Positions 27,557-42,327 of a stretch of 64,000 nt of DNA are shown piece by piece (positions within the stretch are counted from its first letter, which is position 1; the number at the start of each line of letters is the position of its first letter). This DNA is from Clostridia bacterium. Lineage in GTDB: Bacteria > Bacillota > Clostridia > Oscillospirales > Acutalibacteraceae. The stretch is from assembly GCA_900770255.1 (NCBI GenBank), contig CAAGJN010000067.1, forward strand, positions 27,146-91,145, in the 5' to 3' direction. The translations under genes and the position numbers were made by a program. Below the pieces are notes generated by a model that made no database searches, was not told the DNA's origin, and saw nothing but the letters and a program-made list of their open reading frames with translations.

Positions 27557-27695
27557 AAAACGCCCCGGGTATTTGAATGTCCGGAGCGTTTTGCGTCACT
27601 GTGTTCCGAACAAGGGACTGTATCCCTTGCGCCGCTTTTCGGCTATCTGCTTAAGGCAAAAGGCGTGACCACGAAAGTCACGCCTTTTGCCTTAT
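27557..27695. terminator. Cluster of strong hairpins downstream of the zinc-ribbon gene and downstream of lepB (bidirectional terminators)
   Basis: aacgccccgg…ccggagcgtt + tttg (27557-27593), and a 14-bp perfect stem ggcaaaaggcgtgac-cacgaaa-gtcacgccttttgcc (27653-27695). Confidence 0.6.
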
Positions 27696-27741
27696 TAACT
27701 GTCTTATGAACACTCCGCCAAGACGGGTCTTATATTCCTTT

Positions 27742-29710: not shown

Positions 29711-29870
29711 TCCTTATTAAGAGCGGCTGAGGGAACAGGCCCCATGAAGCCCGGCAACCTGGTATTATACCAAGGTGCTAAATCCTGCGGTGCAGACCGG
29801 AAGATAAGGCCGGCGGCGGAGAGATCCGTTTCGCCCATGAGTGCTTAGCGGTTGCGCCGAGCGCTTTTTT
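29711..29870 (+). promoter_or_regulatory. SAM-I (S-box) riboswitch with a terminator-type expression platform upstream of metK
   Basis: tccttattaagagcggctgagggaacaggccccatgaagcccggcaacc…ggtgctaaatcctgcgg…ggaagataagg matches the S-box P1-P4 consensus (kink-turn GA, CCCGGCAACC, GGUGCUAAAUCC). A hairpin and tttttttatt run (29845-29870) precede the metK RBS. Confidence 0.85.
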
Positions 29871-29892: not shown

Positions 29893-31041
29893 ATGGCTAA
29901 CTACTTTTTCACATCCGAATCCGTAACGGGAGGACATCCCGACAAAATCTGCGACCAGATCTCAGACGCCGTTCTCGACGCGATACTCGCCGAGGATAAG
30001 AACGGCAGGGTCGCCTGCGAGTGCTGCTGCACAACAGGTATGGTTATGATCATGGGCGAAATAACGACTACGAGCAAGGTCGATATCCCCGCCATAGCCC
30101 GCCAGGTCATCTGCGATATCGGCTACGACAGCCCCGAAAAGGGCTTCGACGGCCACACCTGCGCCATACTCACAACTATCGACAAGCAGTCGCCCGACAT
30201 CGCGCTCGGCGTTGACAGACAGGGCGCGGGAGATCAGGGTATGATGTTCGGCTTCGCGTGCCGCGAGACGCCCGAGCTTATGCCTCTGCCGATATCGCTC
30301 GCACATAAGCTTGCAGCGCAGCTTACAAAAGTACGCGCCGACGGCACTCTTCCCTACCTCAGACCCGACGGAAAAACTCAGGTCACCGTCGAATACACCG
30401 AGGACGGCAAGCCCGTCAGGATCGACGCCGTCGTCATATCCTCGCAGCACTCGGCTTCGATCGAGATCGAGACGCTCCGCCGCGACATAGAGAAGCATGT
30501 CATCCGCGAGATCATTCCCGCAGATATGATGGACGAGAACACGAAGATATTCATCAACCCGACCGGGCGATTTGTGACCGGCGGTCCGCAGGGTGACAGC
30601 GGCCTTACAGGCAGAAAGATCATCGTTGACACCTACGGCGGATATTCGCGCCACGGCGGCGGCGCCTTCTCAGGCAAAGATCCGACAAAGGTCGACCGCT
30701 CGGCGGCATATGCCGCGAGATATATGGCGAAGAACATCGTTGCCGCAGGCCTTGCCGACAAGTGCGAGGTTCAGATAGCCTACGCGATCGGTATTGAGGA
30801 GCCCGTCTCGGTTTTCGTTGACAGCTTCGGCACCGGCATAATCCCCGACTCGGAGATCGCCGCGGCCGCAAACAAGGTCTTTGACCTGCGCCCCGCTTCG
30901 ATAATCAGGGATCTCGATCTTCGCCGCCCGATCTACCGCCAGATAGCGGCCCTCGGCCATGTCGGCAGAACAGACATCGATCTGACCTGGGAGCACACCG
31001 ACAGGGTCGGCGCGCTCAAGGAGGCCGCGGGCATAAAGTAA
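29893..31041 (+). CDS. metK: S-adenosylmethionine synthetase
   Basis: [30 protein letters not shown]… and [16 protein letters not shown]. Confidence 0.97.
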
Positions 31042-31075
31042 GCTTCGCACCTATTACATATAAATGTATATGGCA

Positions 31076-31112
31076 TCCCGCCGCAGATTAAATTTCTCTG
31101 CGGCGGGATATT
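31076..31112. terminator. Bidirectional terminator between metK and the convergent ykgJ-like gene
   Basis: tcccgccgcag-attaaatttct-ctgcggcggga flanked by A/T runs. Confidence 0.65.
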
Positions 31113-31117
31113 TCTTT

Positions 31118-31624
31118 TCACAGTCTCCCTGCGAGCTCGGCTATCTCCTCTATTTCGCGGCTGAGAGAAAGCAGATATTCTCTGCATTCTTCGTCACGAA
31201 GCAGATATTTCCCCGCGCGACGCACAGCCGTATAAAAGCGTCTGTCGATCTTTTCAGGACCGCCGAGCAGCGGACACATGCCCGCTCTCGGATCCGGCAC
31301 AGGAATGATTTTTATTTCATTTTCGGTCACAACCGCCAGCGGAAACAGGGGAAATATGCGGCACGCGAGCGGCCTGCTACTTCTGCCGCACTCTCCCTCA
31401 CAGACGAGCACCGGCTCGCCGAAATTATCGTCCGAGGCTTTTATTTTGAAGTCTTTATCATTTTTCAGCATCTCCGCTTCGCCCGGGAAGAGCCCCATTC
31501 CGTCGTTGTCGCTCCCCTTGCAACAGCAGGCTCCACAGAGCTTTCCGCAGTTTTTTGCTCCCGTCGGGGTAACACTTTCAAGCTCGTCGAGCGCCTTTTG
31601 AAGTCCGCTTTTAAAATTGCTCAT
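31118..31624 (-). CDS. YkgJ-family cysteine-cluster (putative Zn/Fe-chelating) protein
   Basis: CGKLCGACCC (CxxxCxxCC) is the signature of PF03692/UPF0153. Start set at MSNFKSG, which gives an ATGA overlap with the cobB stop. Confidence 0.65.
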   Translation of the reverse strand: MSNFKSGLQKALDELESVTPTGAKNCGKLCGACCCKGSDNDGMGLFPGEAEMLKNDKDFKIKASDDNFGEPVLVCEGECGRSSRPLACRIFPLFPLAVVTENEIKIIPVPDPRAGMCPLLGGPEKIDRRFYTAVRRAGKYLLRDEECREYLLSLSREIEEIAELAGRL

Positions 31625-32340
31625 ACTTTCACTTCTCCGAGAACCTCGCCGACCCTGCCGCAAATGAGCAGGTCCGCTCTCGCGTCGGCCGAAGTCGGGC
31701 TCATGTTGATAACAACAAGATTATTGCCGCTGAAATAATTGACGAGCCCCGCCGCCGGGTAAACGGTCATGCTCGTACCCGCGATTATCAGCGTATCCGC
31801 CCTCGCTATTGCGCTGACGGCACCCCGTACCGTTTCATCGTCGAGTGCCTCCTCATAGAGCACGACGTCGGGCTTGACAACGCCGCCGCAGGCGCACTGC
31901 GGCACGCCGTCGCTTTTCATTATATCCTCAAGGCTGTAGCTTTTGCCGCAGCGCGTGCAGTAGTTGCGCAGCATACTGCCGTGCAGTTCGAACACGCTTT
32001 TGCTGCCCGCCGCCTGGTGAAGTCCGTCGATATTCTGCGTGACTACCGCCGAAAGTATGCCCTTTTTCTCGAGCTCGGCGAGCTTCAGATGCGCCGCATT
32101 CGGCTTGGCTATGTCCGAATAGGCGAGAATCTTTTCGCGGTAAAACCTATAAAACTCCTCTGTCCTGCGCTCAAAAAAGGTGTGGCTGAGTATCTGCTCG
32201 GGCGGGTAGTCGTATTTTTGATTATACAGTCCGTCCACGCTGCGGAAATCCGGTATCCCGCTCTCCGTCGATACGCCCGCCCCGCCGAAAAAAACGAGCG
32301 AATGTGACTGCGATATTATTCTCGAAAGCTCTTTTTGCAT
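31621..32340 (-). CDS. cobB: NAD-dependent protein deacylase (Sir2 family)
   Basis: GAGVSTESGIPDFRS, …QNIDGLH…, Zn-binding CTRCGK…CACGG. Start at MQKELSRI. Confidence 0.9.
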   Translation of the reverse strand: MQKELSRIISQSHSLVFFGGAGVSTESGIPDFRSVDGLYNQKYDYPPEQILSHTFFERRTEEFYRFYREKILAYSDIAKPNAAHLKLAELEKKGILSAVVTQNIDGLHQAAGSKSVFELHGSMLRNYCTRCGKSYSLEDIMKSDGVPQCACGGVVKPDVVLYEEALDDETVRGAVSAIARADTLIIAGTSMTVYPAAGLVNYFSGNNLVVINMSPTSADARADLLICGRVGEVLGEVKV

Positions 32341-32547
32341 GCTTGTTCCTCCTTGTATGCTGCAAATCAATTATACCATTTCCTGCAAAAAAACCAATTA
32401 TTTTTTACTGATGCGCTGAAAATTTTCGCGGCTTTTTTATAAAAAATCTACAAAGATCGACTCATCGGCATTTTTTTGCGAATTTTCTATTTACAAATGC
32501 GGGCGATACTGCTATTATTAGAACAACAACCGAGTGAGGTCATTATC

Positions 32548-32670
32548 ATGAAGCTTTCAGCAAACCTGACAGCTAAATACTTTCCCTACTTTAGCTTTAC
32601 CTACTTTTACGGTAAGGCTTATTTGCGTTTGACCGCTGACAGGGATGTGGCCGCACACTGCTGTGCATAA
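32548..32670 (+). CDS. Candidate Tyr/Phe-rich leader peptide (MKLSANLTAKYFPYFSFTYFYGKAYLRLTADRDVAAHCCA) of the aro operon
   Basis: GAGGT RBS 8 nt upstream of the ATG. Codons 10-25 contain 5 Tyr and 4 Phe. It sits between the divergent promoter region and an intrinsic terminator that precedes aroF. Confidence 0.5.
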   Translation: MKLSANLTAKYFPYFSFTYFYGKAYLRLTADRDVAAHCCA

Positions 32671-32692
32671 CGGATTTTAAATCAGGCAATCT

Positions 32693-32727
32693 CCCCCGCA
32701 GTTAAACGCTGCGGGGGTTTTTTATTT
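32693..32727 (+). terminator. Intrinsic terminator (putative attenuator) 20 nt after the leader ORF and ~30 nt before aroF
   Basis: cccccgcag-ttaaacg-ctgcggggg followed by ttttttattt. Confidence 0.8.
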
Positions 32728-32755
32728 AAAAAATTTTTCACCGGAGGGAAACACA

Positions 32756-33772
32756 ATGGTAGTCATTCTTAAAGAAAATTACAACGCAGAGCAAAAGGAC
32801 AATCTCGTAAACTGGCTCGAAAGCCTCGGCATTACGGTACACAGCAGCCTCGGCGAGCACACCACGGTGCTCGGCCTCGTCGGCGACACTTCGGGAATTG
32901 ACATCGATCTGATAAAGGCGCTCGACATCGTCGAGGACGTCAAGCGTATTCAGGAGCCCTACAAAAACGCAAACCGCAAGTTCCACCCCGAAGATACGGT
33001 TGTCGTCATTGACAAAGAGAAGGATATAAAGATCGGCGGCGGCAACTTCCAGATCATTGCGGGGCCCTGCTCGGTCGAGTCCGAGGAGCAGGTGTGCGGA
33101 ATAGCCGAGGCCGTCAAGAAATCCGGCGCTACGCTGCTGCGCGGCGGCGCGTTCAAGCCCCGCACCTCGCCCTACGCTTTCCAGGGTCTGCGTGCAGAAG
33201 GCATCAAGCTTCTGCTCGAGGCAAAGAAGCTGACGGGTATGCCGATAGTCACCGAGATCATGGATCTTTCACAGCTCCCGCTGTTCGACGAGGTCGACGT
33301 TATCCAAGTCGGCGCGCGCAACATGCAGAACTTCGAGCTGTTAAAGCACCTCGGCCACACCAACAAGCCCATTCTCTTAAAGCGCGGCCTCTCAAGCACC
33401 CTTCAGGAGCTGCTCATGAGCGCCGAATACATTATGGCAGGCGGCAACATGAATGTCATACTCTGCGAGCGCGGCATCAGAACCTTTGAAACTTACACCC
33501 GCAACACGCTCGACATCTCGGCTGTTCCCGCGATCAAAACGCTTTCGCACCTGCCGATAATTATTGATCCGAGTCACGCGACAGGCATCTCTAAGCTTGT
33601 AAAGCCCATGGCCTTTGCAGCTACGGCGGCCGGCGCAGACGGACTTATAATCGAGGTTCACAACGACCCGGAGCACGCGCTCTGCGACGGACCGCAGTCC
33701 CTGACCCCCGAGGCTTTCGACGACGTTGTCAAGGGAGTCAACAGCATCCGCCCGTTCGCCTACAAAATGTGA
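32756..33772 (+). CDS. aroF: 3-deoxy-7-phosphoheptulonate (DAHP) synthase, type I-beta with an N-terminal regulatory domain
   Basis: 338 aa. The catalytic core …IAGPCSVESEEQ…, …GGAFKPRTSPY…, …IIDPSHATG… is KDSA/AroG-like, with a ~70-aa N-terminal extension. Confidence 0.92.
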   Translation: MVVILKENYNAEQKDNLVNWLESLGITVHSSLGEHTTVLGLVGDTSGIDIDLIKALDIVEDVKRIQEPYKNANRKFHPEDTVVVIDKEKDIKIGGGNFQIIAGPCSVESEEQVCGIAEAVKKSGATLLRGGAFKPRTSPYAFQGLRAEGIKLLLEAKKLTGMPIVTEIMDLSQLPLFDEVDVIQVGARNMQNFELLKHLGHTNKPILLKRGLSSTLQELLMSAEYIMAGGNMNVILCERGIRTFETYTRNTLDISAVPAIKTLSHLPIIIDPSHATGISKLVKPMAFAATAAGADGLIIEVHNDPEHALCDGPQSLTPEAFDDVVKGVNSIRPFAYKM

Positions 33773-33954
33773 GGCATCCGACAATTAAGGGCCGGTTTTA
33801 AAGCGCTGCTTCGCCCCCCGAAAACAGGCTTTTTCGTGCGCGCCCGGCGCATTTCAGCAAAAAGGAAGATCAACTGTTTGCCGGGCGGTTTTCCCTATCG
33901 GGCGCGGCGCACGTCCCGGTTGTCAAAATGCCCAAGAAAGGATATAATACAGGT

Positions 33955-34785
33955 ATGAAGATAGCAGTCATAGGCCTCGGACTTATAGGCGGTTCAATGG
34001 CAAAGGCGATAAAAGACAACACCGAAAACGAGGTTTTCGGCTCCGACATAAACGAGAGCGTAATTTTAAAGGCTAAACTCGTCGGCGCGATAGACGGCGA
34101 GCTCACCGATGAAATTTTAGCTCAGTGCGACAGGGTAATCATCGCCCTCTATCCCGAATCAACAATAGAATTTCTCGATAAAAAAGCAAAGATTATCAAG
34201 AAGGGCGCGGTGGTCATTGACTGCTCTGGTGTAAAGCGATATGTCTTTACACCTGCTCATGAGATCGCCAAAGCCAACGGCTTCGAATTCATCGGAGGCC
34301 ACCCGATGGCGGGCGTGGAGCGCTGGGGCTTTGACAGCTCCTCAGGATTGCTTTTTAACAATGCGTCGATGATACTGACCCCCGACGGCAGCACGGATAT
34401 AGCTCTGCTGCACGAGATAAAGAAGCTGTTTTTATCCATCGGCTTCGGCAGCATCACGGTGGTAACTCCCAATAAGCACGACAGAATAATCGCCTATACA
34501 TCTCAGCTCGCGCACGTTGTGGCAAGCGCATATATAAAGAGCCCGAGCGCATCGGATCACATGGGCTTGAGCGCCGGCAGCTACAAGGACATGACCCGCG
34601 TCGCGTCGCTCAACGCCGAGATGTGGAGCGAGCTGTTCCTTGAAAACAAGGACAATCTCATAAATGAGATCGACAATATCATAAACAACCTGACCGACTA
34701 TCGCAATGCGATAGCGTCAAACGACCGCGAGGAGCTCAAAAAACTGCTCGAGGAAGGAACAAAGAGAAAGGCCGACTGCGGCTGA
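33955..34785 (+). CDS. tyrA: Prephenate dehydrogenase
   Basis: MKIAVIGLGLIGGS Rossmann start, …GGHPMAG…. Start moved to the ATG at 33955. Confidence 0.88.
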   Translation: MKIAVIGLGLIGGSMAKAIKDNTENEVFGSDINESVILKAKLVGAIDGELTDEILAQCDRVIIALYPESTIEFLDKKAKIIKKGAVVIDCSGVKRYVFTPAHEIAKANGFEFIGGHPMAGVERWGFDSSSGLLFNNASMILTPDGSTDIALLHEIKKLFLSIGFGSITVVTPNKHDRIIAYTSQLAHVVASAYIKSPSASDHMGLSAGSYKDMTRVASLNAEMWSELFLENKDNLINEIDNIINNLTDYRNAIASNDREELKKLLEEGTKRKADCG

Positions 34786-34801
34786 TAAAGGAGAGAAGCA
34801 T

Positions 34802-35845
34802 ATGCAGACCGTGAGAGTCAAAGCTTCAACTGAATACGACGTGCTCATCGAGCGCGGCATACTCGACAGCGCGGGAGAGCTTATCCAACAGCGCACAGGT
34901 GCAAAAAGAGCACTGCTCATCACCGATCGTACCGTGGACGGGCTCTATGCGGACAGGGTACTGGACATTCTCAGAACCGCCGGCACAGAGAGCGAAAAAT
35001 TTGTCTTTGAAGACGGTGAGGAGCATAAGAGCCTCGAGACGGTCGGCCGCATTCTCTCGTTTGCCGCCGAGCTGGAGCTCACGCGCAGCGACATCTTCGT
35101 CGCGCTGGGCGGCGGAATAGTCGGCGACGTCACGGGCTTCGCGGCAAGCGCTTATCTGCGCGGCGTGCGCTTTGTGCAGATACCGACGACGCTGCTCGCA
35201 GCGGTCGATTCCTCCGTCGGAGGCAAAACCGGCGTCAATCTACCCGAGGGTAAGAATCTCGCGGGCGCGTTTCATCAGCCGTCGCTCGTGCTCTGCGATC
35301 CGGACTGCTTTGAGACGCTCTCCCCCGCTCTGTTCGCGGACGGGGCCGCAGAGAGCATCAAATACGGCATAATAGCGGACGAAAAGCTGTTTGAGGCTTT
35401 TGAGAAAGACGACATCAGGGAGAATATTGAGCAGATCGTGCGCCGCTGCGTCGAGATAAAAAGCGAGATCGTCTCGCGCGACGAATTTGACACGGGCGAA
35501 CGGCAAAAGTTAAACCTCGGCCACACGCTCGGCCACGCGATAGAAAAATGCAGCGGCTTTGAGATATCTCACGGGCACGCAGTCGCGATCGGCACCGTGC
35601 GCGCGTGCATCGCAGCGGAAAAGCTCGGGATATGCGGAAATATAGCTCCGCGAGTTAAAAAGGTCTTTGAGAAAAACGGGCTTCCGACCGCTACCGACAT
35701 CAGCACGCATGAGCTTACAAAGGTCATGCACCGCGACAAAAAGCGCAGTTCAAATGGAATGAACCTTATCCTGCCGACAAAGATCGGCGAATGTATACTA
35801 TACAAAACGGAGTCGAACAGGCTTGAAGACATCTATTCACTTTGA
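34802..35845 (+). CDS. aroB: 3-dehydroquinate synthase
   Basis: …ALGGGIVGDVTGFAAS…, …GHTLGHAIE…, 347 aa. Confidence 0.93.
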   Translation: MQTVRVKASTEYDVLIERGILDSAGELIQQRTGAKRALLITDRTVDGLYADRVLDILRTAGTESEKFVFEDGEEHKSLETVGRILSFAAELELTRSDIFVALGGGIVGDVTGFAASAYLRGVRFVQIPTTLLAAVDSSVGGKTGVNLPEGKNLAGAFHQPSLVLCDPDCFETLSPALFADGAAESIKYGIIADEKLFEAFEKDDIRENIEQIVRRCVEIKSEIVSRDEFDTGERQKLNLGHTLGHAIEKCSGFEISHGHAVAIGTVRACIAAEKLGICGNIAPRVKKVFEKNGLPTATDISTHELTKVMHRDKKRSSNGMNLILPTKIGECILYKTESNRLEDIYSL

Positions 35846-35861
35846 CGGAGGTAGCTCTATG

Positions 35862-37052
35862 GACATGAAAATAGCTCCGGCGCGCCTGAGCGGGAGCTTG
35901 GCCGCCCCTCCGTCAAAATCGCACGCGCACAGGCTGATGACAGCCATGTTTTTAGCGGGCCGGGAGATTCCCGAAGCGATGTGTACTTCCGACGATCTGA
36001 ACGCGACGAGGCGCTGCCTTTACGCCCTGCGCAGCGGTGAGACGCTCGACTGCGGCGAGAGCGGTACAACGCTTCGCTTTCTGCTCCCCGTGGCCGCGTC
36101 GCTCGGCGTGAAAGTCCGCTTCGAGGGACACGGCAGACTGCCGGAGCGGCCGATGTCCGAGCTTGTGCGGGCGCTCAGAGAAAACGGCGCCGTGATATCC
36201 TCGGATACGCTGCCGATAAGCCTTTCGGGCAAGCTGCACGCCGGCACATTTTGCGTACCCGGCAACATCAGCTCACAGTTCATCTCAGGGCTGCTGTTCG
36301 CCCTGCCGCTGCTCGGCGGTGACAGCGAGATCGTAATAAGCGGCAAGCGCGAATCCGCAGGATACATCGAAATGACTCTTGACGTGCTCAGAGCTTTTTC
36401 AATAGACATCAACCGCACCGAGAACGGTTTTACAATAAAAGGAAACCAGCAATACACAGCGCCCGCAGACTGTACCGTCCAGGGCGACTGGTCGAACGCC
36501 GCGTTTTTTCTGTGCATGTCGGCGCTCGGAAGCAATATAAAAATAACCGGTCTCGACATTAGCTGCTCGCAGAGCGACCGCGCGGTGACGGATATATTGA
36601 AAAATTTCGGTGCTGAGGTGACTGATGCCGACGGGGCCGTTACCGTATGCGGCGGGAAGCTGCACGGACAGAGAATAGATATTTCTCCCTGCCCCGATCT
36701 TTTCCCGGCGCTTGCAGTCACCGCCTGCGCCGCCGAGGGCGACACGGTCTTCTTCAACGCCGGGCGCCTCAGGATAAAGGAGAGCGACCGCATCGCGGCG
36801 GTTGAAGCGATGATAAAATCACTCGGCGGGAGCGCCGAGAGCACGCGGGACACGCTGACCGTTCACGGCGGCGGGCTGCAGGGCGGAGAGGTCGATTCGT
36901 TCAACGATCACCGCATAGTTATGGCGGCCGCGACCGCCGCGTGTGTCTGCAAAGAGCCCATCATGATAAGGGGCGCTCAGGCAGTAAACAAATCGTACCC
37001 GACATTTTTCAAAGATTATACAGAGCTTGGAGGAAAATCGGATGTCATTTGA
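35862..37052 (+). CDS. aroA: 3-phosphoshikimate 1-carboxyvinyltransferase (EPSP synthase)
   Basis: …LAAPPSKSHAHR… and …LFPALAVTA…. Start uncertain (35823-35868). Confidence 0.92.
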   Translation, partial: DMKIAPARLSGSLAAPPSKSHAHRLMTAMFLAGREIPEAMCTSDDLNATRRCLYALRSGETLDCGESGTTLRFLLPVAASLGVKVRFEGHGRLPERPMSELVRALRENGAVISSDTLPISLSGKLHAGTFCVPGNISSQFISGLLFALPLLGGDSEIVISGKRESAGYIEMTLDVLRAFSIDINRTENGFTIKGNQQYTAPADCTVQGDWSNAAFFLCMSALGSNIKITGLDISCSQSDRAVTDILKNFGAEVTDADGAVTVCGGKLHGQRIDISPCPDLFPALAVTACAAEGDTVFFNAGRLRIKESDRIAAVEAMIKSLGGSAESTRDTLTVHGGGLQGGEVDSFNDHRIVMAAATAACVCKEPIMIRGAQAVNKSYPTFFKDYTELGGKSDVI

Positions 37053-38118
37053 GAACGGAAGGAACATAAGCTTGACCGTGTTCGGCGAGTCACATGCGCG
37101 AGCGGTAGGCGCAGTCATAGAGGGACTTCCCGCGGGCGAGGAGATCGACGAGGAGCTCATCATGCAGTTTATGCGCCGCAGAATGGGCGGCAAGCCCTGG
37201 AGCACTCCGCGCCGCGAGGAGGACAAGCCCGTTATCCTCTGCGGTCTGCTCAACGGCAAAACGACGGGAGCTGCACTTTGCGCGATAATAGAAAATAACA
37301 ACACCCGTCCCGCCGACTACGAGAACATGAAAAAAATTCCGCGCCCGTCACATGCGGACTATCCGGCGTTTGTCAAATATAACGGCGCAAACGACCGCAG
37401 CGGCGGCGGGCAGTTCTCAGGCAGGCTGACGGCTCCGCTGTGCGCCGCAGGCGCTATCTGTGAGCAGATTCTCGAGCGCCGCGGCGTCAAGGTTGCCGCG
37501 CACCTTTCACGCGCGGCGGGCGTTGACGACAAACCCTTCGACCCCTGCAACCCGGACGGCGGCCTGTTCGAAAAGCTCAAGTGCAAGGAGTTTCCCGTCA
37601 TTGACGACGAGGCGGGCGGCAGGATGATTGAACAGATCATCAGGGCAAAAGACAACATGGACTCGGTCGGAGGCGTTGTCGAATGTGCCGTAACCGGCCT
37701 TGAACCGGGGCTCGGCGAGCCGATATTCGGCTCGGTCGAAAGTCGGCTCAGTTCGATGATCTTCGGCATAGGCGGCGTTCGCGGAATCGAGTTCGGCGCG
37801 GGCTTTTTGGCGGCAGACATGACCGGAAGCCTCCACAACGACCCCTACTGCATAGTTGAAAATGAGATAAAAACAGTCACGAACAACCACGGCGGAATAA
37901 TAGGCGGACTGACGAGCGGCATGCCGATAATTTTCAGAGCGGCGTTCAAGCCGACTTCCTCGATAGGTCTGCCGCAGAGAAGCATCGATCTCGATTCGCT
38001 CGAGGAGACGAAGCTCGAGATAAGAGGCCGTCACGATCCGTGCATCGCCGTGCGCGCAGTTCCCTGCGTTGAGGCGGCCGCAGCCGTGACTGTACTTGAT
38101 ATACTGATGAGTAAATAA
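37042..38118 (+). CDS. aroC: Chorismate synthase
   Basis: …LTVFGESHARAVGAVIEGLPAG… and …GRHDPCIAVRAVP…. GGAGG RBS before the ATG at 37042. Confidence 0.95.
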   Translation: MSFENGRNISLTVFGESHARAVGAVIEGLPAGEEIDEELIMQFMRRRMGGKPWSTPRREEDKPVILCGLLNGKTTGAALCAIIENNNTRPADYENMKKIPRPSHADYPAFVKYNGANDRSGGGQFSGRLTAPLCAAGAICEQILERRGVKVAAHLSRAAGVDDKPFDPCNPDGGLFEKLKCKEFPVIDDEAGGRMIEQIIRAKDNMDSVGGVVECAVTGLEPGLGEPIFGSVESRLSSMIFGIGGVRGIEFGAGFLAADMTGSLHNDPYCIVENEIKTVTNNHGGIIGGLTSGMPIIFRAAFKPTSSIGLPQRSIDLDSLEETKLEIRGRHDPCIAVRAVPCVEAAAAVTVLDILMSK

Positions 38119-38126
38119 AACAGGAG

Positions 38127-39275
38127 ATGGAGAAAATGGAACTTTCAGACTACAGAAAAGAGCTTGACAGTATTGACGCTCAGATGCTCGAGCTCTTCAA
38201 GCAGAGGATGAACACGGTGCGCGGAGTGGCCGAGTACAAAAAAGAACATAATCTGCCTATCCTCCAGCAGGGCAGAGAGAGGGAGATCCTTGCCTCTGCC
38301 GCCGCAAACGCCGGAGAGGAGCTTGAGGACTATGCACGCACATTTTTCGCCTCTCTTATGGACGTCAGCCGCTCATATCAGTCAAGATTCATGAGCAATG
38401 GCGGCTCCGTTTCAGAGACGATAACCGAGGCGCTCAGAAATACCCCGCCGATCTTCCCAAAGCACGGCACCGTCGCCTGTCAGGGCGTTGAGGGTGCTTA
38501 TTCCCAAATGGCCTGCGACAAGCTTTTCACGGCTCCGTCTATCTCATATTTCAAGAACTTCGAGGGTGTGTTCGCCGCAGTTGAGCAGGGCCTGTGCGAA
38601 TACGGCATACTGCCGATCGACAACAGCACTTACGGCACGGTCAACGAGGTCTACGACCTGATGAAAAACTACCGTTTCCATATAGTCAGGAGCATTAAGC
38701 TCAAGGTCGATCACTCGCTGCTCGTCCTGCCCGGCACAGAGCTTAAAGACATCAAAGAGATCTTCTCCCACGAGCAGGCGCTCGGCCAATGCTCGGAATT
38801 CCTCAAGGCTCACCCCGACATCAAGGTCACGATATGTGAAAACACGGCGGCCGCCGCAAAGCTTCTCCACGATAGCGGCAGACATGACGCGGCGTCAATA
38901 TCCTCGGCCGGCTGTGCCAACCTCTACGGGCTCAAAAAGCTCGACGTGCATGTTCAGAACACCGACGGCAACTTTACGCGCTTTATCTGCATCTCCAAAA
39001 AAGCGATGATCTTCCCAGGCGCAGACAGGATAAGTCTTATGCTCTCCCTGCCCCACAGGCCCGGCTCGCTCTATTCGCTGATCTCCCGCTTCTCCGTGCT
39101 CGGACTCAACCTGACAAAGCTTGAGAGCCGTCCGATCGCCGGCAGCGATTTCGAGTTCATGTTCTATTTCGACATCGAGGCGTCGGTCTATTCTCCCTCA
39201 GTGCTCGCGCTGCTTGACGAGCTCTCCGAAAGCCCGGAGCTGTTCGTGTTCCTCGGCAGCTACTCGGAGGTCTGA
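38127..39275 (+). CDS. pheA: Bifunctional chorismate mutase / prephenate dehydratase
   Basis: N-terminal CM domain (…LDSIDAQMLELFKQRM…), PDT domain, and a C-terminal ACT domain (…ESRPIAGSDFEFMFYFD…). Confidence 0.9.
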   Translation: MEKMELSDYRKELDSIDAQMLELFKQRMNTVRGVAEYKKEHNLPILQQGREREILASAAANAGEELEDYARTFFASLMDVSRSYQSRFMSNGGSVSETITEALRNTPPIFPKHGTVACQGVEGAYSQMACDKLFTAPSISYFKNFEGVFAAVEQGLCEYGILPIDNSTYGTVNEVYDLMKNYRFHIVRSIKLKVDHSLLVLPGTELKDIKEIFSHEQALGQCSEFLKAHPDIKVTICENTAAAAKLLHDSGRHDAASISSAGCANLYGLKKLDVHVQNTDGNFTRFICISKKAMIFPGADRISLMLSLPHRPGSLYSLISRFSVLGLNLTKLESRPIAGSDFEFMFYFDIEASVYSPSVLALLDELSESPELFVFLGSYSEV

Positions 39276-39276
39276 G

Positions 39277-40509
39277 ATGAGGTGCGCACTTATAGGCGAA
39301 AGGCTCGGCCACAGCTACTCGAAGCTCATTCACGACTCATTCGGGCTTTACAGCTATGAGCTCGTGAGCCTGCCGAAGGAAAAACTGAGCGATTTTATGC
39401 GCGAGGGCGAGTTTGACGCATTTAACGTGACTATTCCCTACAAGCGGGACGTCATGCCCTACTGCTCATACATCAGCCCCGAGGCCGAGCATATCGGCAG
39501 CGTAAACACGGTAGTCAGAACTCCCGACGGGCTGCACGGCTTCAACACCGACTATTTCGGATTTAAGGCGATGGCAGACCGCGCGGGAATAAGCTTCAAG
39601 GGCAAAAATATCGTTATTCTCGGCAGCGGCGGCACTTCGCTGACGGCACGGGCCGTCGCGGCGGACGGCGGCGCAGAGAAAATCTGCATCGTGTCCCGCT
39701 CGGGCGAATACAACTACGAGAACCTTGAGCGCCTCGCCGACTGCGACGTGCTGATAAACACGACGCCCGTCGGGATGTACCCAAAAAACGGCGCTTCGGC
39801 GGTAACGCTCGACAGCTTCCCGCGGTGCGGGGCAGTGCTCGATGTGATATATAACCCCCTGCGTACTGAGCTTATTTTGCAGGCGCAGGAGAGAAATATA
39901 AAATGCTCCGGCGGGCTGTATATGCTCGTATCGCAGGCGGCTCAGAGCGCCGGATACTTTTGCGGCGCCGAGATACCGCAGCAGAAGGTCGAGGAGGTTT
40001 TCCGTTCGCTTACGCTGAGCGTGCAGAACATCGTGCTCGTCGGCATGCCCGGCTGCGGCAAGACTACCGTCGCTCGGGAGCTCGCAGCGCTCACGGGCAG
40101 ACGGATCGCCGACACCGACGAAATGGTTGAAGCTTCTGCGGGGATGAGCATTCCGGAAATCTTCGAAAAATACGGAGAACAGCATTTCAGAAAGCTCGAG
40201 AGCGAGGCGGTTTGCAGCGCCGCAAAGGAAAAAGGTCTGATAATCTCGACCGGCGGCGGCGCGGTGCTCAGAGAGGAGAATGTGCACGCACTCAAGGGCA
40301 ACGGACGGATATACCATCTGCTGCGCAGCCTTGACGAGCTTGCGCTCGACGGGCGTCCGCTTTCAAGGGACAGAGCCGCGCTCAAAAAGATGCTCAAAGA
40401 GCGCAGCCCAATATACGCCTCCTGTGCGGACACGCAGATCGACAATAATCTGACTCCCGAGCAGACGGCCGAAAAAATACTCGGCGAATTTGAATCGTCG
40501 AGGGTGTGA
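39277..40509 (+). CDS. aroE-aroK: Fused shikimate dehydrogenase (N-terminal) and shikimate kinase (C-terminal)
   Basis: …IGERLGHSYSKLIHDSFG… (AroE substrate motif), …ILGSGGTS…, then Walker A LVGMPGCGKTT and …IISTGGGAV… (AroK). The track ORF starts upstream in frame; the ATG at 39277 follows the pheA stop by 1 nt. Confidence 0.88.
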   Translation: MRCALIGERLGHSYSKLIHDSFGLYSYELVSLPKEKLSDFMREGEFDAFNVTIPYKRDVMPYCSYISPEAEHIGSVNTVVRTPDGLHGFNTDYFGFKAMADRAGISFKGKNIVILGSGGTSLTARAVAADGGAEKICIVSRSGEYNYENLERLADCDVLINTTPVGMYPKNGASAVTLDSFPRCGAVLDVIYNPLRTELILQAQERNIKCSGGLYMLVSQAAQSAGYFCGAEIPQQKVEEVFRSLTLSVQNIVLVGMPGCGKTTVARELAALTGRRIADTDEMVEASAGMSIPEIFEKYGEQHFRKLESEAVCSAAKEKGLIISTGGGAVLREENVHALKGNGRIYHLLRSLDELALDGRPLSRDRAALKKMLKERSPIYASCADTQIDNNLTPEQTAEKILGEFESSRV

Positions 40510-40572
40510 AAACAGATTAAAAGCGGCCCCACGGACAAATGCCCGTGGGGTCGCTTCATTGCATCGCTGCAC

Positions 40573-42327
40573 CTATATATTGTTTCTGCGCGCTCTGAGC
40601 TGCTCCATCATATCCTTGACGCCCGAGGCAAAGGCCGACGCAGTATGACTGCCGAGGGAGAACATCTCCTGATAATGGGCATAGTCCTTAAAAAACAGCT
40701 TTTCAGGCAGCTTGCCGTAGCCCAAAAAGAACATGCAGTAGTCATTGTCGGGAATGATATAGCCTATCGCATCGTTTGCAAGGCCGAACACCGCAGTATC
40801 GCCGCCGACAATGCTCTCTATGCTCTCAAAATCGCTCCCGCAGCCGGTGATGCTGTTTTCGGCGAGCATGTCTCCCGTCCCGCTGATGAGTCCGGACGTT
40901 ATCTCGCCGGGCACGAGCGTTATCTTCATTTCGCCGCCGAGCTCGATATATCCCGTCTCAGTCAGCAGCTCATACACGCCCTTTTGCGGACGCAGCAGTT
41001 CAAAACTCGCGAAGCCGAGCTTGCCTATCATCTTTTCAAGCGGATTATCGACGTTGAGCAATATTTTTTTGTGCGCCGAAGTCATGAGCGGCTCAAGCTC
41101 GCGCTCGGTTACGGGCTCGACGCCGATCCTGCGTACTGCGTCGCGGTAGGGCTCCCCGCTGTTTTCCGGCGAGAGCAGCGGATCTTTTTCTATTTCTTCG
41201 CGCGTCTTTGTCAGCGCGAGAGTCAGCTTGCCGAGATCGCGGCCGAGCGCCGAAGTCTGGGCTGCAAAGTTTTCTTCCTTTACACCGCCCGCTCCCCTGT
41301 TCGGATAAATTCCATTGACAGCGGCGTTGAAAAATATAAAGTTTTTGCCGGCACCATTGACTATTTCAGCCATATAGAAAGGGAAATCACTTGACAGCCT
41401 GTCGCCCGTATTTGCGCCGATCTTCATGCCGTTTGCGTAGGGATGCGCACCGAAATTGACAATCACCGTCTCCCTCAGCGACGTATCGGCGGGGATAAAG
41501 CGCAGGCGGTTCATGCGCGGGGAATATTCGCGCGGAGGACGCTTTGAAAAGATAAAATCCTTCAGCCCGTACTCGGAGAGCGTCATGTCCTCATACGGCT
41601 TTTCGGCAGAATATTTTCCGAGCTTCTCAACGCTGTCAAAACCTATCTGCGCGAACATGAGCTTTCCCGGCGTCATGTTGTCAACCGCCTCGGAGACCGT
41701 CTTTTTTATCCTGCCGATGAGTCCGTCGATAAACTTTTCATCGACGCTCGGGGTGAGCTCCCGTTTTGTAAAAAACAGCTCGCTGATATTTTTAAAAAAT
41801 TTCTCGCCTGTTACGCTCCAGATGCCCATGGTATCGACTGAGCTGTGCGCGTGGGTCGAAAGGATGTTTATATATGAAACATTGTTCGTGCGGCAGAAGC
41901 CATCGAGTCCCCTGCGCACACGGCTAATCACGGGCGCGGTGAGTCCGATGCAGTCAACGGTGCAGAAAACCTCCGCGGGTCTGTCGCCCCCGTCGCTTAT
42001 CGCTATCGCCCTGATCATAATATCGTCGAGCACGCTTTTTATCCTGCGCGGCGGCACGGAAAGGTTGCCTCCGACATAGTATTTCTTAGCGCTCACATCG
42101 CCCGGCGCTGCGCTGCGCTCGGAATAGCCGAGATACCACGAGTCACCCGGCGCGTCTCCGATACGCAGCTTTGCATCGGAATCAAAATTTTTATTATTCT
42201 CGCATCTTTTGAAATTTACGGGCTCCGGCAGCAGTTTGTTCATTCCCTCGAGCAGGGAGGTTAGTCCTTTTTCGGCTCTCCTTGCGCGCTTTGCACCGCT
42301 TTTAAATTTTTCATCAAAGATGTACAT
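40573..42327 (-). CDS. Hypothetical hydrolase, possibly neutral/alkaline-ceramidase-like
   Basis: 584 aa. …IMIRAIAISDGGDRPAEVFCTVDCIGLT… and …ILSTHAHSSVDT… loosely resemble the N-terminal catalytic region of neutral ceramidases. This is a weak assignment. Confidence 0.35.
   Translation of the reverse strand: MYIFDEKFKSGAKRARRAEKGLTSLLEGMNKLLPEPVNFKRCENNKNFDSDAKLRIGDAPGDSWYLGYSERSAAPGDVSAKKYYVGGNLSVPPRRIKSVLDDIMIRAIAISDGGDRPAEVFCTVDCIGLTAPVISRVRRGLDGFCRTNNVSYINILSTHAHSSVDTMGIWSVTGEKFFKNISELFFTKRELTPSVDEKFIDGLIGRIKKTVSEAVDNMTPGKLMFAQIGFDSVEKLGKYSAEKPYEDMTLSEYGLKDFIFSKRPPREYSPRMNRLRFIPADTSLRETVIVNFGAHPYANGMKIGANTGDRLSSDFPFYMAEIVNGAGKNFIFFNAAVNGIYPNRGAGGVKEENFAAQTSALGRDLGKLTLALTKTREEIEKDPLLSPENSGEPYRDAVRRIGVEPVTERELEPLMTSAHKKILLNVDNPLEKMIGKLGFASFELLRPQKGVYELLTETGYIELGGEMKITLVPGEITSGLISGTGDMLAENSITGCGSDFESIESIVGGDTAVFGLANDAIGYIIPDNDYCMFFLGYGKLPEKLFFKDYAHYQEMFSLGSHTASAFASGVKDMMEQLRARRNNI

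Follow-up and report, generated by a model that had tools for sequence, protein, structure and literature searches.

A predicted ribosome-mediated Tyr/Phe attenuator upstream of aroF in gut Clostridia

How does a gut clostridium match transcription of its aromatic amino-acid genes to the supply of tyrosine and phenylalanine? Aromatic and other amino-acid operons of Firmicutes are commonly under the control of TRAP or T-boxes. In the DNA analyzed here, a 64-kb window of contig CAAGJN010000067.1 of assembly GCA_900770255.1 (coordinates are positions in this window, + strand), a seven-gene operon that begins with aroF is preceded by a short open reading frame (ORF) dense in Tyr and Phe codons and by an intrinsic terminator. 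An earlier note on this DNA, made from the letters alone, had likened the arrangement to E. coli-type attenuators and had suggested that a mixture of Tyr and Phe codons suits the end products of the operon. Both ideas hold up well. A promoter-proximal ORF, a codon cluster, a terminator, and an antiterminator are all present, and a run of 4 Tyr and 4 Phe codons stands ahead of aroF, tyrA, and pheA. With a probability of roughly 0.85, the leader is a classical ribosome-mediated transcription attenuator that governs whether transcription continues into aroF and its downstream genes. In other words, the leader would sense charged tRNA-Tyr and tRNA-Phe through the position of a translating ribosome.

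Anatomy and conservation of the leader

The leader is made up of the following elements, given in nucleotide (nt) positions. Pairings were taken from minimum free energy (MFE) folds.

32490..32518, + strand: sigma-70-like promoter TTTACA-17 nt-TATTAT with an extended TG, matching at 10/12 positions
32536..32540, + strand: Shine-Dalgarno sequence GAGGT of the leader ORF, 7 nt before its ATG
32548..32670, + strand: leader peptide ORF, 40 codons and a stop, translated as MKLSANLTAKYFPYFSFTYFYGKAYLRLTADRDVAAHCCA
32572..32587, + strand: region 1, with the 5' strands of a putative anti-antiterminator
32578..32610, + strand: regulatory codon run, codons 11-21 by codon coordinates, the putative ribosome stall zone
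32593..32619, + strand: hairpin P1, AGCTTTACC (codons S-F-T) paired with GGTAAGGCT (codons G-K-A) at 32593-32601/32611-32619, -10.4 kcal/mol
32620..32648, + strand: region 2, which pairs back to region 1 or forward to the terminator 5' arm and loop
32692..32708, + strand: region 3, the terminator 5' arm and loop, partner of region 2 in the antiterminator
32693..32723, + strand: intrinsic terminator, 10-bp stem 32693-32702/32708-32717 followed by a T-run at 32718-23, -20.1 kcal/mol

Transcription is predicted to start at ~32525, about 20 nt before the leader ORF. The -35 and -10 hexamers are kept in the closest relative (locus L001) and are invariant in four contigs of the same species. Within the ORF, Tyr is encoded by codons 11, 14, 19, 21, and 25 and Phe by codons 12, 15, 17, and 20. 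This amounts to 5 Tyr and 4 Phe in 15 codons, with 4 of each falling in codons 11-21. With a run taken as at least 7 aromatic residues in 12 codons, this one is unique in the window on both strands, except for one stretch antisense to a 250-aa ORF. P1 lies wholly inside the leader ORF. The terminator reads CCCCCGCAG(T)/(G)CTGCGGGGG at 32693-32717 and then TTTTTT; it starts 22 nt past the leader stop codon, and 38 nt separate the end of its stem from the ATG of aroF (32756). The earlier note had described a 40-codon ORF with a good ribosome binding site, a dense Tyr/Phe run, a stop 22 nt ahead of a strong terminator, and a terminator shortly upstream of aroF; the coordinates above bear out each of these features.

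At least 22 public contigs, derived from gut metagenomes and NCBI assembly GCA_051881495.1, encode the exact AroF of the window (L081-L084; protein ids P0001-P0006). In identical gut-metagenome contigs the leader ORF is gene-called as an unnamed 40-aa gene. It is called on 17 contigs of the exact-AroF set, and public assemblies otherwise miss it. The peptide has no match in Pfam or NCBIfam.

Is the leader conserved beyond the species? The comparative set consisted of the 80 genome loci whose AroF is closest to that of the window (64-80% identity). These are mostly metagenome-assembled genomes (MAGs) of Oscillospiraceae, Acutalibacteraceae, Ruminococcus, Lachnospiraceae, Anaerovoracaceae, and Christensenellales, together with the isolate Angelakisella massiliensis, whose strain Marseille-P3217 (L027) carries a leader of this type. 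The earlier note had named absence of the small ORF from relatives that keep the terminator as a result that would refute attenuation. The opposite was seen: 61/80 aroF loci keep a short ORF with a Tyr/Phe run upstream of aroF. The homologous ORFs encode 16-47 aa (median 28) and lie 60-250 nt upstream of aroF, and codon 9 is the median start of their aromatic run; MKRNLFAAEYFYFNFAYFFGKAF..., MSIVSKMVFAAEYFFYFSFTFFFGKAY..., and MLCKTNATAYSFFYFYFYFNEK may serve as examples. When a run was defined as at least 7 aromatic residues within 12 codons, it was present in 49/75 upstream regions vs 1/375 shuffles, and in 9/880 other 450-nt chunks of the same loci. A scan for second aromatic-run leaders elsewhere in the 80 loci gave only scattered off-frame matches. 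A terminator follows the leader ORF in 59/60 homologous leaders, with a median stability of -19 kcal/mol. These terminators were located with a fold-based finder; a strict perfect-stem finder overlooked most of them.

The conserved element appears to be a translated one. A Shine-Dalgarno sequence and an ATG in the Tyr/Phe frame, with the frame open through the run, were found in 53/59 loci, compared with 1/59 for each of the other frames. The leaders contain 17.5% F, 14.1% Y, and 0.3% W; with F and Y this high and W this low, the signal they carry is Tyr plus Phe, not Trp. Tyr is encoded by TAT (44%) and TAC (56%), a choice that resembles that of aroF. In L001 the promoter, run, hairpin, and terminator are kept and the peptide has strongly diverged, so that even in the closest relative the sequence outside the aromatic run is different. 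In the four same-species contigs the leader is almost invariant. The frame-specific start signals, the varying Tyr codons, and the varied lengths of the ORF together argue for selection on translation rather than on an RNA motif.

The mix of codons also varies with the genes downstream. The median Phe/(Phe+Tyr) fraction is 0.74 at 8 aroF-aroB loci vs 0.56 at 46 aroF-tyrA loci (Mann-Whitney p=0.0005, with loci treated as independent and kinship ignored). The eight Phe-rich loci that lack tyrA after aroF are L014, L019, L026, L059, L066, L069, L073, and L076. This agreement between the leader's Tyr:Phe ratio and the content of the operon is an additional hint that the identity of the codons is important. 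A Tyr-rich class of leaders before an apparently stand-alone aroF was also considered (p=0.015) and set aside as unreliable because several of its contigs end soon after aroF. Three loci, L022 (a Faecalibacterium MAG), L035, and L074, have short, almost pure-Tyr leaders (MLMARYAYYYVLYGKCRA, MKHFRFVDYYYALYQPGRA, and MSSSRFGYYYYYVLCSLCRA), which may represent a Tyr-specific sub-type; in L022 and L074 the contig continues for only about 0.4 and 1.0 kb past aroF.

Some members of the comparative set carry unexpected taxon labels. Two MAGs labelled Victivallales/Victivallaceae (Lentisphaerota; L051 and L079) encode a Clostridia-like AroF with a Tyr/Phe leader. MAGs labelled Bacteroidaceae, Spirochaetia, or Treponema (L009, L038, L041, L056, L063, L067, L072, and L075) have a similar AroF, and no leader and no Rfam element was found at these loci. 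Horizontal transfer or mis-binning may account for such labels.

Alternative RNA pairings and the proposed switch

Does the leader RNA contain a structure that competes with the terminator? No convincing antiterminator had been found by eye in the earlier note, and on this point folding gave a different answer: 32626-32645 pairs with 32692-32708, and the pairing is supported across 58 loci. This antiterminator is the MFE structure of the window transcript folded up to the terminator loop (32526-32708). It is composed of three segments, namely CGTTTGAC at 32626-33 with GTTAAACG at 32701-08, GC at 32635-36 with GC at 32698-99, and GGGA at 32642-45 with TCCC at 32692-95. The duplex, estimated at -19.0 kcal/mol, uses up most of the terminator 5' arm and the entire loop. 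Masking 30 nt to mimic a stalled ribosome, whichever of codons 11-21 it occupied, did not change this MFE structure. When the free RNA is folded at full length, the terminator forms, and region 2 pairs back to region 1: AGGGA (32641-45) pairs with TCCCT (32583-87) inside the run, and TATTTGC (32620-26) pairs with GC/AAATA (32572-73 and 32575-79).

Homologous leaders follow the same antiterminator logic with other letters. For example, GAGTATG pairs with the loop CATACTC in L023, GTGTTTA with TAAACAC in L005, and GGTTTCACCG with CGGTGAAATC in L008. The terminator loop co-varies with region 2 among homologues. An alignment-free test compared cognate with non-cognate partners at 58 loci, using 5000 permutations and reversed-sequence controls. 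The pairing of region 2 with the terminator 5' arm and loop was -14.0 kcal/mol for cognate vs -10.4 kcal/mol for non-cognate partners (p<=0.0002); none of the 5000 permutations reached this excess of 3.6 kcal/mol. Likewise, the pairing of region 1 with region 2 was -12.7 vs -9.7 kcal/mol (p<=0.0002). With either partner reversed, which leaves its composition unchanged, the antiterminator effect was gone (p=0.21 and 0.40), and the region 1 pairing retained a small residual of -0.79 kcal/mol (p=0.008), well under the real effect. An antiterminator of -10 kcal/mol or better is present at 48/58 loci, and at 39/58 it uses at least 3 nucleotides of the arm and at least 3 of the loop. Its upstream strand starts a median of 16 nt (interquartile range 14-19) past the last aromatic codon of the run, a position that a ribosome stalled there would leave exposed immediately past its 3' edge.

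The two hairpins were assessed in a MAFFT alignment of 23 homologous leaders on a fixed register (alignment A1). The terminator stem is 91% paired, with double-sided compensatory changes at 10/12 pairs. P1 is also 91% paired and shows eight double changes from A-U to G-C at one pair. The amino acids encoded by the 3' arm of P1 vary (G/S/R, K/R, and A/V/G/L) with base pairing retained. Because residues change while the pairing stays, the AAE...GKA consensus of the leaders reflects a constraint at the level of the RNA and not of the peptide. Where does translation end relative to these elements? The leader ORF reaches past region 2 at 30/58 loci and stops no more than 15 nt from the end of region 2 at 13 more.

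These structures suggest how the switch would operate. RNA polymerase would start at ~32525, and a ribosome would begin to translate the 40-codon leader ORF. If Tyr-tRNA and Phe-tRNA are in good supply, it would pass the run and region 2 and reach the stop codon at 32668-70. A ribosome over region 2 would keep the emerging terminator 5' arm from being captured, and the hairpin at 32693-32717 would form and terminate transcription at the T-run. In other words, coverage of region 2 would leave region 3 to pair with region 4, and transcription would end. When either amino acid is short, the ribosome would stall at one of the eight Tyr/Phe codons in 32578-32610. Its footprint would melt the region 1 pairings and P1 and would halt before region 2. 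The freed region 2 could then pair with 32692-32708 before the terminator 3' arm exists, and the polymerase would continue into aroF. Since the terminator (-20.1 kcal/mol) beats the antiterminator in full-length folds, the choice between the two must be kinetic, as in classical attenuators. The stalling, its kinetics, and the response to amino-acid supply are predictions drawn from the layout and folding of the leader. It is very unlikely that the alternating aromatic nascent peptide itself would add to stalling.

Alternative explanations and the operon setting

Several observations weigh against attenuation of this kind or limit its reach. Leader Phe codons are TTT in 82% of cases vs 47% in the adjacent aroF (61 loci); the bias could result from a constraint of RNA pairing or AT-richness, or from selection for a wobble-decoded and possibly slower codon. 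On the fixed MAFFT register the antiterminator is 63% paired vs 40-48% in slid controls, and the helix of regions 1 and 2 is 64% paired. Because loop lengths differ, the fixed register under-counts the antiterminator, and the evidence of co-variation comes mainly from the alignment-free test. Per-locus shuffle z-scores of the antiterminator are modest (mean -1.8, window -0.4). Furthermore, the truncated free RNA of the window prefers the antiterminator over the pairing of regions 1 and 2, so basal termination must depend on a ribosome covering region 2 and not on a strong anti-antiterminator. The correlation between codon mix and gene content, as a hint of specificity, takes no account of phylogeny. 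Lastly, the attenuator may not be the sole control of the six genes from tyrA to aroK because a promoter-like site, TTGTCA-17-TATAAT (11/12 sigma-70-like match), is located at 33920-33948 and ends 7 nt before the tyrA ATG. This site may be an internal promoter, possibly one that gives a leaderless tyrA transcript.

Could one of the regulators known from Firmicutes act here instead? A search of 31000-34000 with Rfam 15, at gathering score and at E<=10, found no T-box and no other family in the leader. Weak matches aligned to the terminator only (e.g., trpB at 26 bits vs a gathering score of 59), and the Phe, Trp, His, Leu, and Thr leader families were absent among the matches to E=10. There was also no T-box core-like sequence in the leader within 3 mismatches. 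These results speak against a T-box riboswitch (RF00230), which would have a stem I with a specifier loop and a T-box sequence that forms the antiterminator bulge, and which the earlier note had not seen either. TRAP binding was judged by 9-11 (G/U)AG triplets spaced 2-3 nt apart and overlapping the antiterminator. Only 4 such triplets occur in the 230-nt leader, and no correctly spaced chain is longer than 1, which speaks against a TRAP-regulated leader of the Bacillus trp/aro type. Rfam also gave no T-box or other cis-regulator at 19 related loci without a leader or with an atypical one.

The attenuator might nevertheless depend on a binder, such as a TRAP-like or other protein or a small molecule that recognizes the UAY-UUY repeat or P1, with the ORF being incidental. 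Such control would be in keeping with the frequency of TRAP and T-boxes at aromatic genes of Firmicutes, and the run does double as the 5' arm of conserved RNA pairings; the preference for TTT over TTC likewise hints at a constraint on the RNA. A binder is nonetheless highly improbable. The leader has no Rfam family, no (G/U)AG chain, and no T-box core, and its conserved structures are simple hairpins rather than a complex aptamer-like fold. An incidental ORF does not fit the strict frame specificity of the start signals (53/59 vs 1/59 per other frame), and recognition of the repeat does not fit Tyr wobble positions that are free to vary or a Tyr:Phe ratio that tracks operon content. A different possibility is a TnaC-like arrest peptide, whose aromatic nascent chain would sense free Tyr, free Phe, or another ligand rather than uncharged tRNA. 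The recurrent peptide-like consensus (F)AAEYFYFSF..GKA and the alternation of Tyr and Phe, which is unusual among hunger-codon leaders, speak for it. However, the AAE and GKA codons form the arms of the region 1:2 pairing and of P1, and these amino acids change while the pairing is kept. The leaders vary in length (16-47 aa) and in sequence, ranging from nearly pure Tyr to nearly pure Phe. Moreover, arrest by an abundant amino acid would induce biosynthesis amid plenty, which is the wrong polarity. An arrest peptide therefore has only a slight chance of being correct.

Least probable of all is that the ORF encodes a functional small hydrophobic protein and that the hairpin is an ordinary or partial terminator with no sensing role. 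The ORF is indeed gene-called in several public assemblies, but it belongs to no Pfam or NCBIfam family, and its conservation is limited to the aromatic run and the RNA-pairing segments. It is always immediately upstream of aroF with the terminator in between, and the loop of that terminator changes in step with a segment upstream of it, a feature for which a plain terminator has no need. The direct observations on the leader are its anatomy, the conservation of that anatomy, its reading-frame specificity, and the co-variation of its alternative pairings.

The genes placed under the proposed control are the following.

32756..33772, + strand: aroF, DAHP (3-deoxy-D-arabino-heptulosonate 7-phosphate) synthase with an N-terminal ferredoxin-like (FXD) domain (Pfam PF00793, PF18152), the first regulated gene in this model
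33955..40509, + strand: tyrA, aroB, aroA, aroC, pheA, and an aroE-aroK fusion (Pfam), co-directional and 3' of aroF

Pfam domains confirm the seven genes, from aroF to aroE-aroK, that the earlier note had assigned to the operon. The products after aroF are prephenate dehydrogenase, 3-dehydroquinate (DHQ) synthase, and 5-enolpyruvylshikimate-3-phosphate (EPSP) synthase, followed by chorismate synthase, chorismate mutase/prephenate dehydratase, and a shikimate dehydrogenase-shikimate kinase fusion. The tyrA start was taken from gene calls in identical contigs. No terminator was found in the gap between aroF and tyrA (33773-33954). Upstream of the leader, a Sir2-family gene (31621-32370) is divergent, and the leader terminator therefore cannot belong to it. 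A hairpin of -27.6 kcal/mol at 40521-40556 lies between the end of aroE-aroK (40509) and a convergent 584-aa ORF at 40573-42327 that has no Pfam match; it is likely a shared terminator that closes the aro operon.

Other terminator-like elements occur elsewhere in the window. A SAM (S-adenosylmethionine) riboswitch (RF00162, 29711-29810, 79.7 bits) with its own terminator hairpin at 29839-29866 precedes a SAM synthetase gene (ORF 29893-31041); it is the only Rfam family at gathering score in the whole 64-kb window. Two tandem terminator-like hairpins on the + strand, at 27559-27590 (-14.0 kcal/mol) and 27660-27686 (-15.5 kcal/mol), are no more than 150 nt before a 222-aa ORF that starts at 27706. 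They may constitute an attenuator, or may simply close the gene before them. No additional leader-peptide candidates emerged when the window was scanned for further terminators in 5' untranslated regions.

What would the leader mean beyond this operon? It could be the first described case of a large and uncatalogued family of attenuators that respond to both Tyr and Phe across gut Clostridia (Oscillospiraceae, Acutalibacteraceae, Lachnospiraceae, Christensenellales, and others). Such a family would have taken over the common aromatic pathway from T-boxes or TRAP, with its Tyr:Phe mix tuned to the presence of tyrA and pheA. The odds on this broader proposal are about even. As about three in four of the clostridial relatives sampled carry the leader, this abundant gut lineage would adjust its entry into the shikimate pathway by the speed of translation. 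The combination of ORF, P1, antiterminator, and terminator is a ready seed for an RNA or leader-peptide family that is lacking in Rfam 15, Pfam, and NCBIfam, and annotators could drop the label "hypothetical protein" for these ORFs. The apparent tuning of the Tyr:Phe mix to operon content offers a testable case of how attenuator specificity evolves.

Comparison with known leader-peptide systems

Leader-peptide attenuation is textbook knowledge for Proteobacteria and is also known in Actinobacteria. The proposed switch resembles the E. coli pheL-pheA and trpL-trp leaders in having regulatory codons in region 1, a 2:3 antiterminator, and a 3:4 terminator with a U-run, and in that charged tRNA would be read out through ribosome position. 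The stability of the 2:3 structure relative to 3:4 is also much like that reported for the trp leader. There are also differences. The window leader has no Rfam leader-family match at E<=10, interleaves codons of two amino acids, and is present in Clostridia, where T-box control is usual. In addition, the pheL and trpL ORFs stop between regions 1 and 2, whereas the window ORF crosses region 2.

The nearest functional precedent appears to be aroR of Corynebacterium glutamicum. As summarized in PMC11802643, aroR is a leader peptide with a Phe-Tyr-Phe motif upstream of aroF that acts by ribosome-mediated attenuation (Neshat et al. 2014), and the same summary reports it as responsive to Phe and not to Tyr. 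Both systems have a short ORF with Phe/Tyr codons directly upstream of a DAHP synthase gene; aroR controls an operon that contains aroF, as the window leader would. They differ in that aroR belongs to an actinobacterial host, has three regulatory codons vs the 8-9 of the window leader, and precedes an operon of other content; the likeness described is functional.

A second precedent, uORFC-13-1, comes from a Firmicutes-related lineage. This motif of 24 sequences was predicted before aroF in Acholeplasma and environmental sequences and was proposed to mediate Phe-dependent, ribosome-mediated attenuation (Brewer et al. 2021, PMC8632094). Judged by its text description, it has the same architecture as the window leader, with a predicted promoter, a ribosome binding site, a start codon, a Phe-coding U-run, and an adjacent intrinsic terminator ahead of aroF. 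The difference is that its U-run encodes at least one Phe, whereas the window leader contains an alternating Tyr/Phe run. His leader peptides located before hisS/hisZ paralogues in Bacilli, described as the first regular leader peptides of Firmicutes (Naville & Gautheret 2010, PMC2965389), provide a further precedent for leader-peptide attenuators in place of T-boxes in this phylum. They concern another amino acid, other genes, and another bacterial order, and they have no aromatic codons.

A full-text literature search found no description of a Tyr/Phe leader for Clostridia, although its coverage was incomplete and absence is not proven. Since this kind of system is well known and has a precedent at aroF, the Tyr/Phe leader is not a new mechanism. 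It is very probably a known type of switch, uncatalogued in this clostridial group, that shares its logic with the E. coli leaders and its place in front of aroF with aroR and uORFC-13-1.

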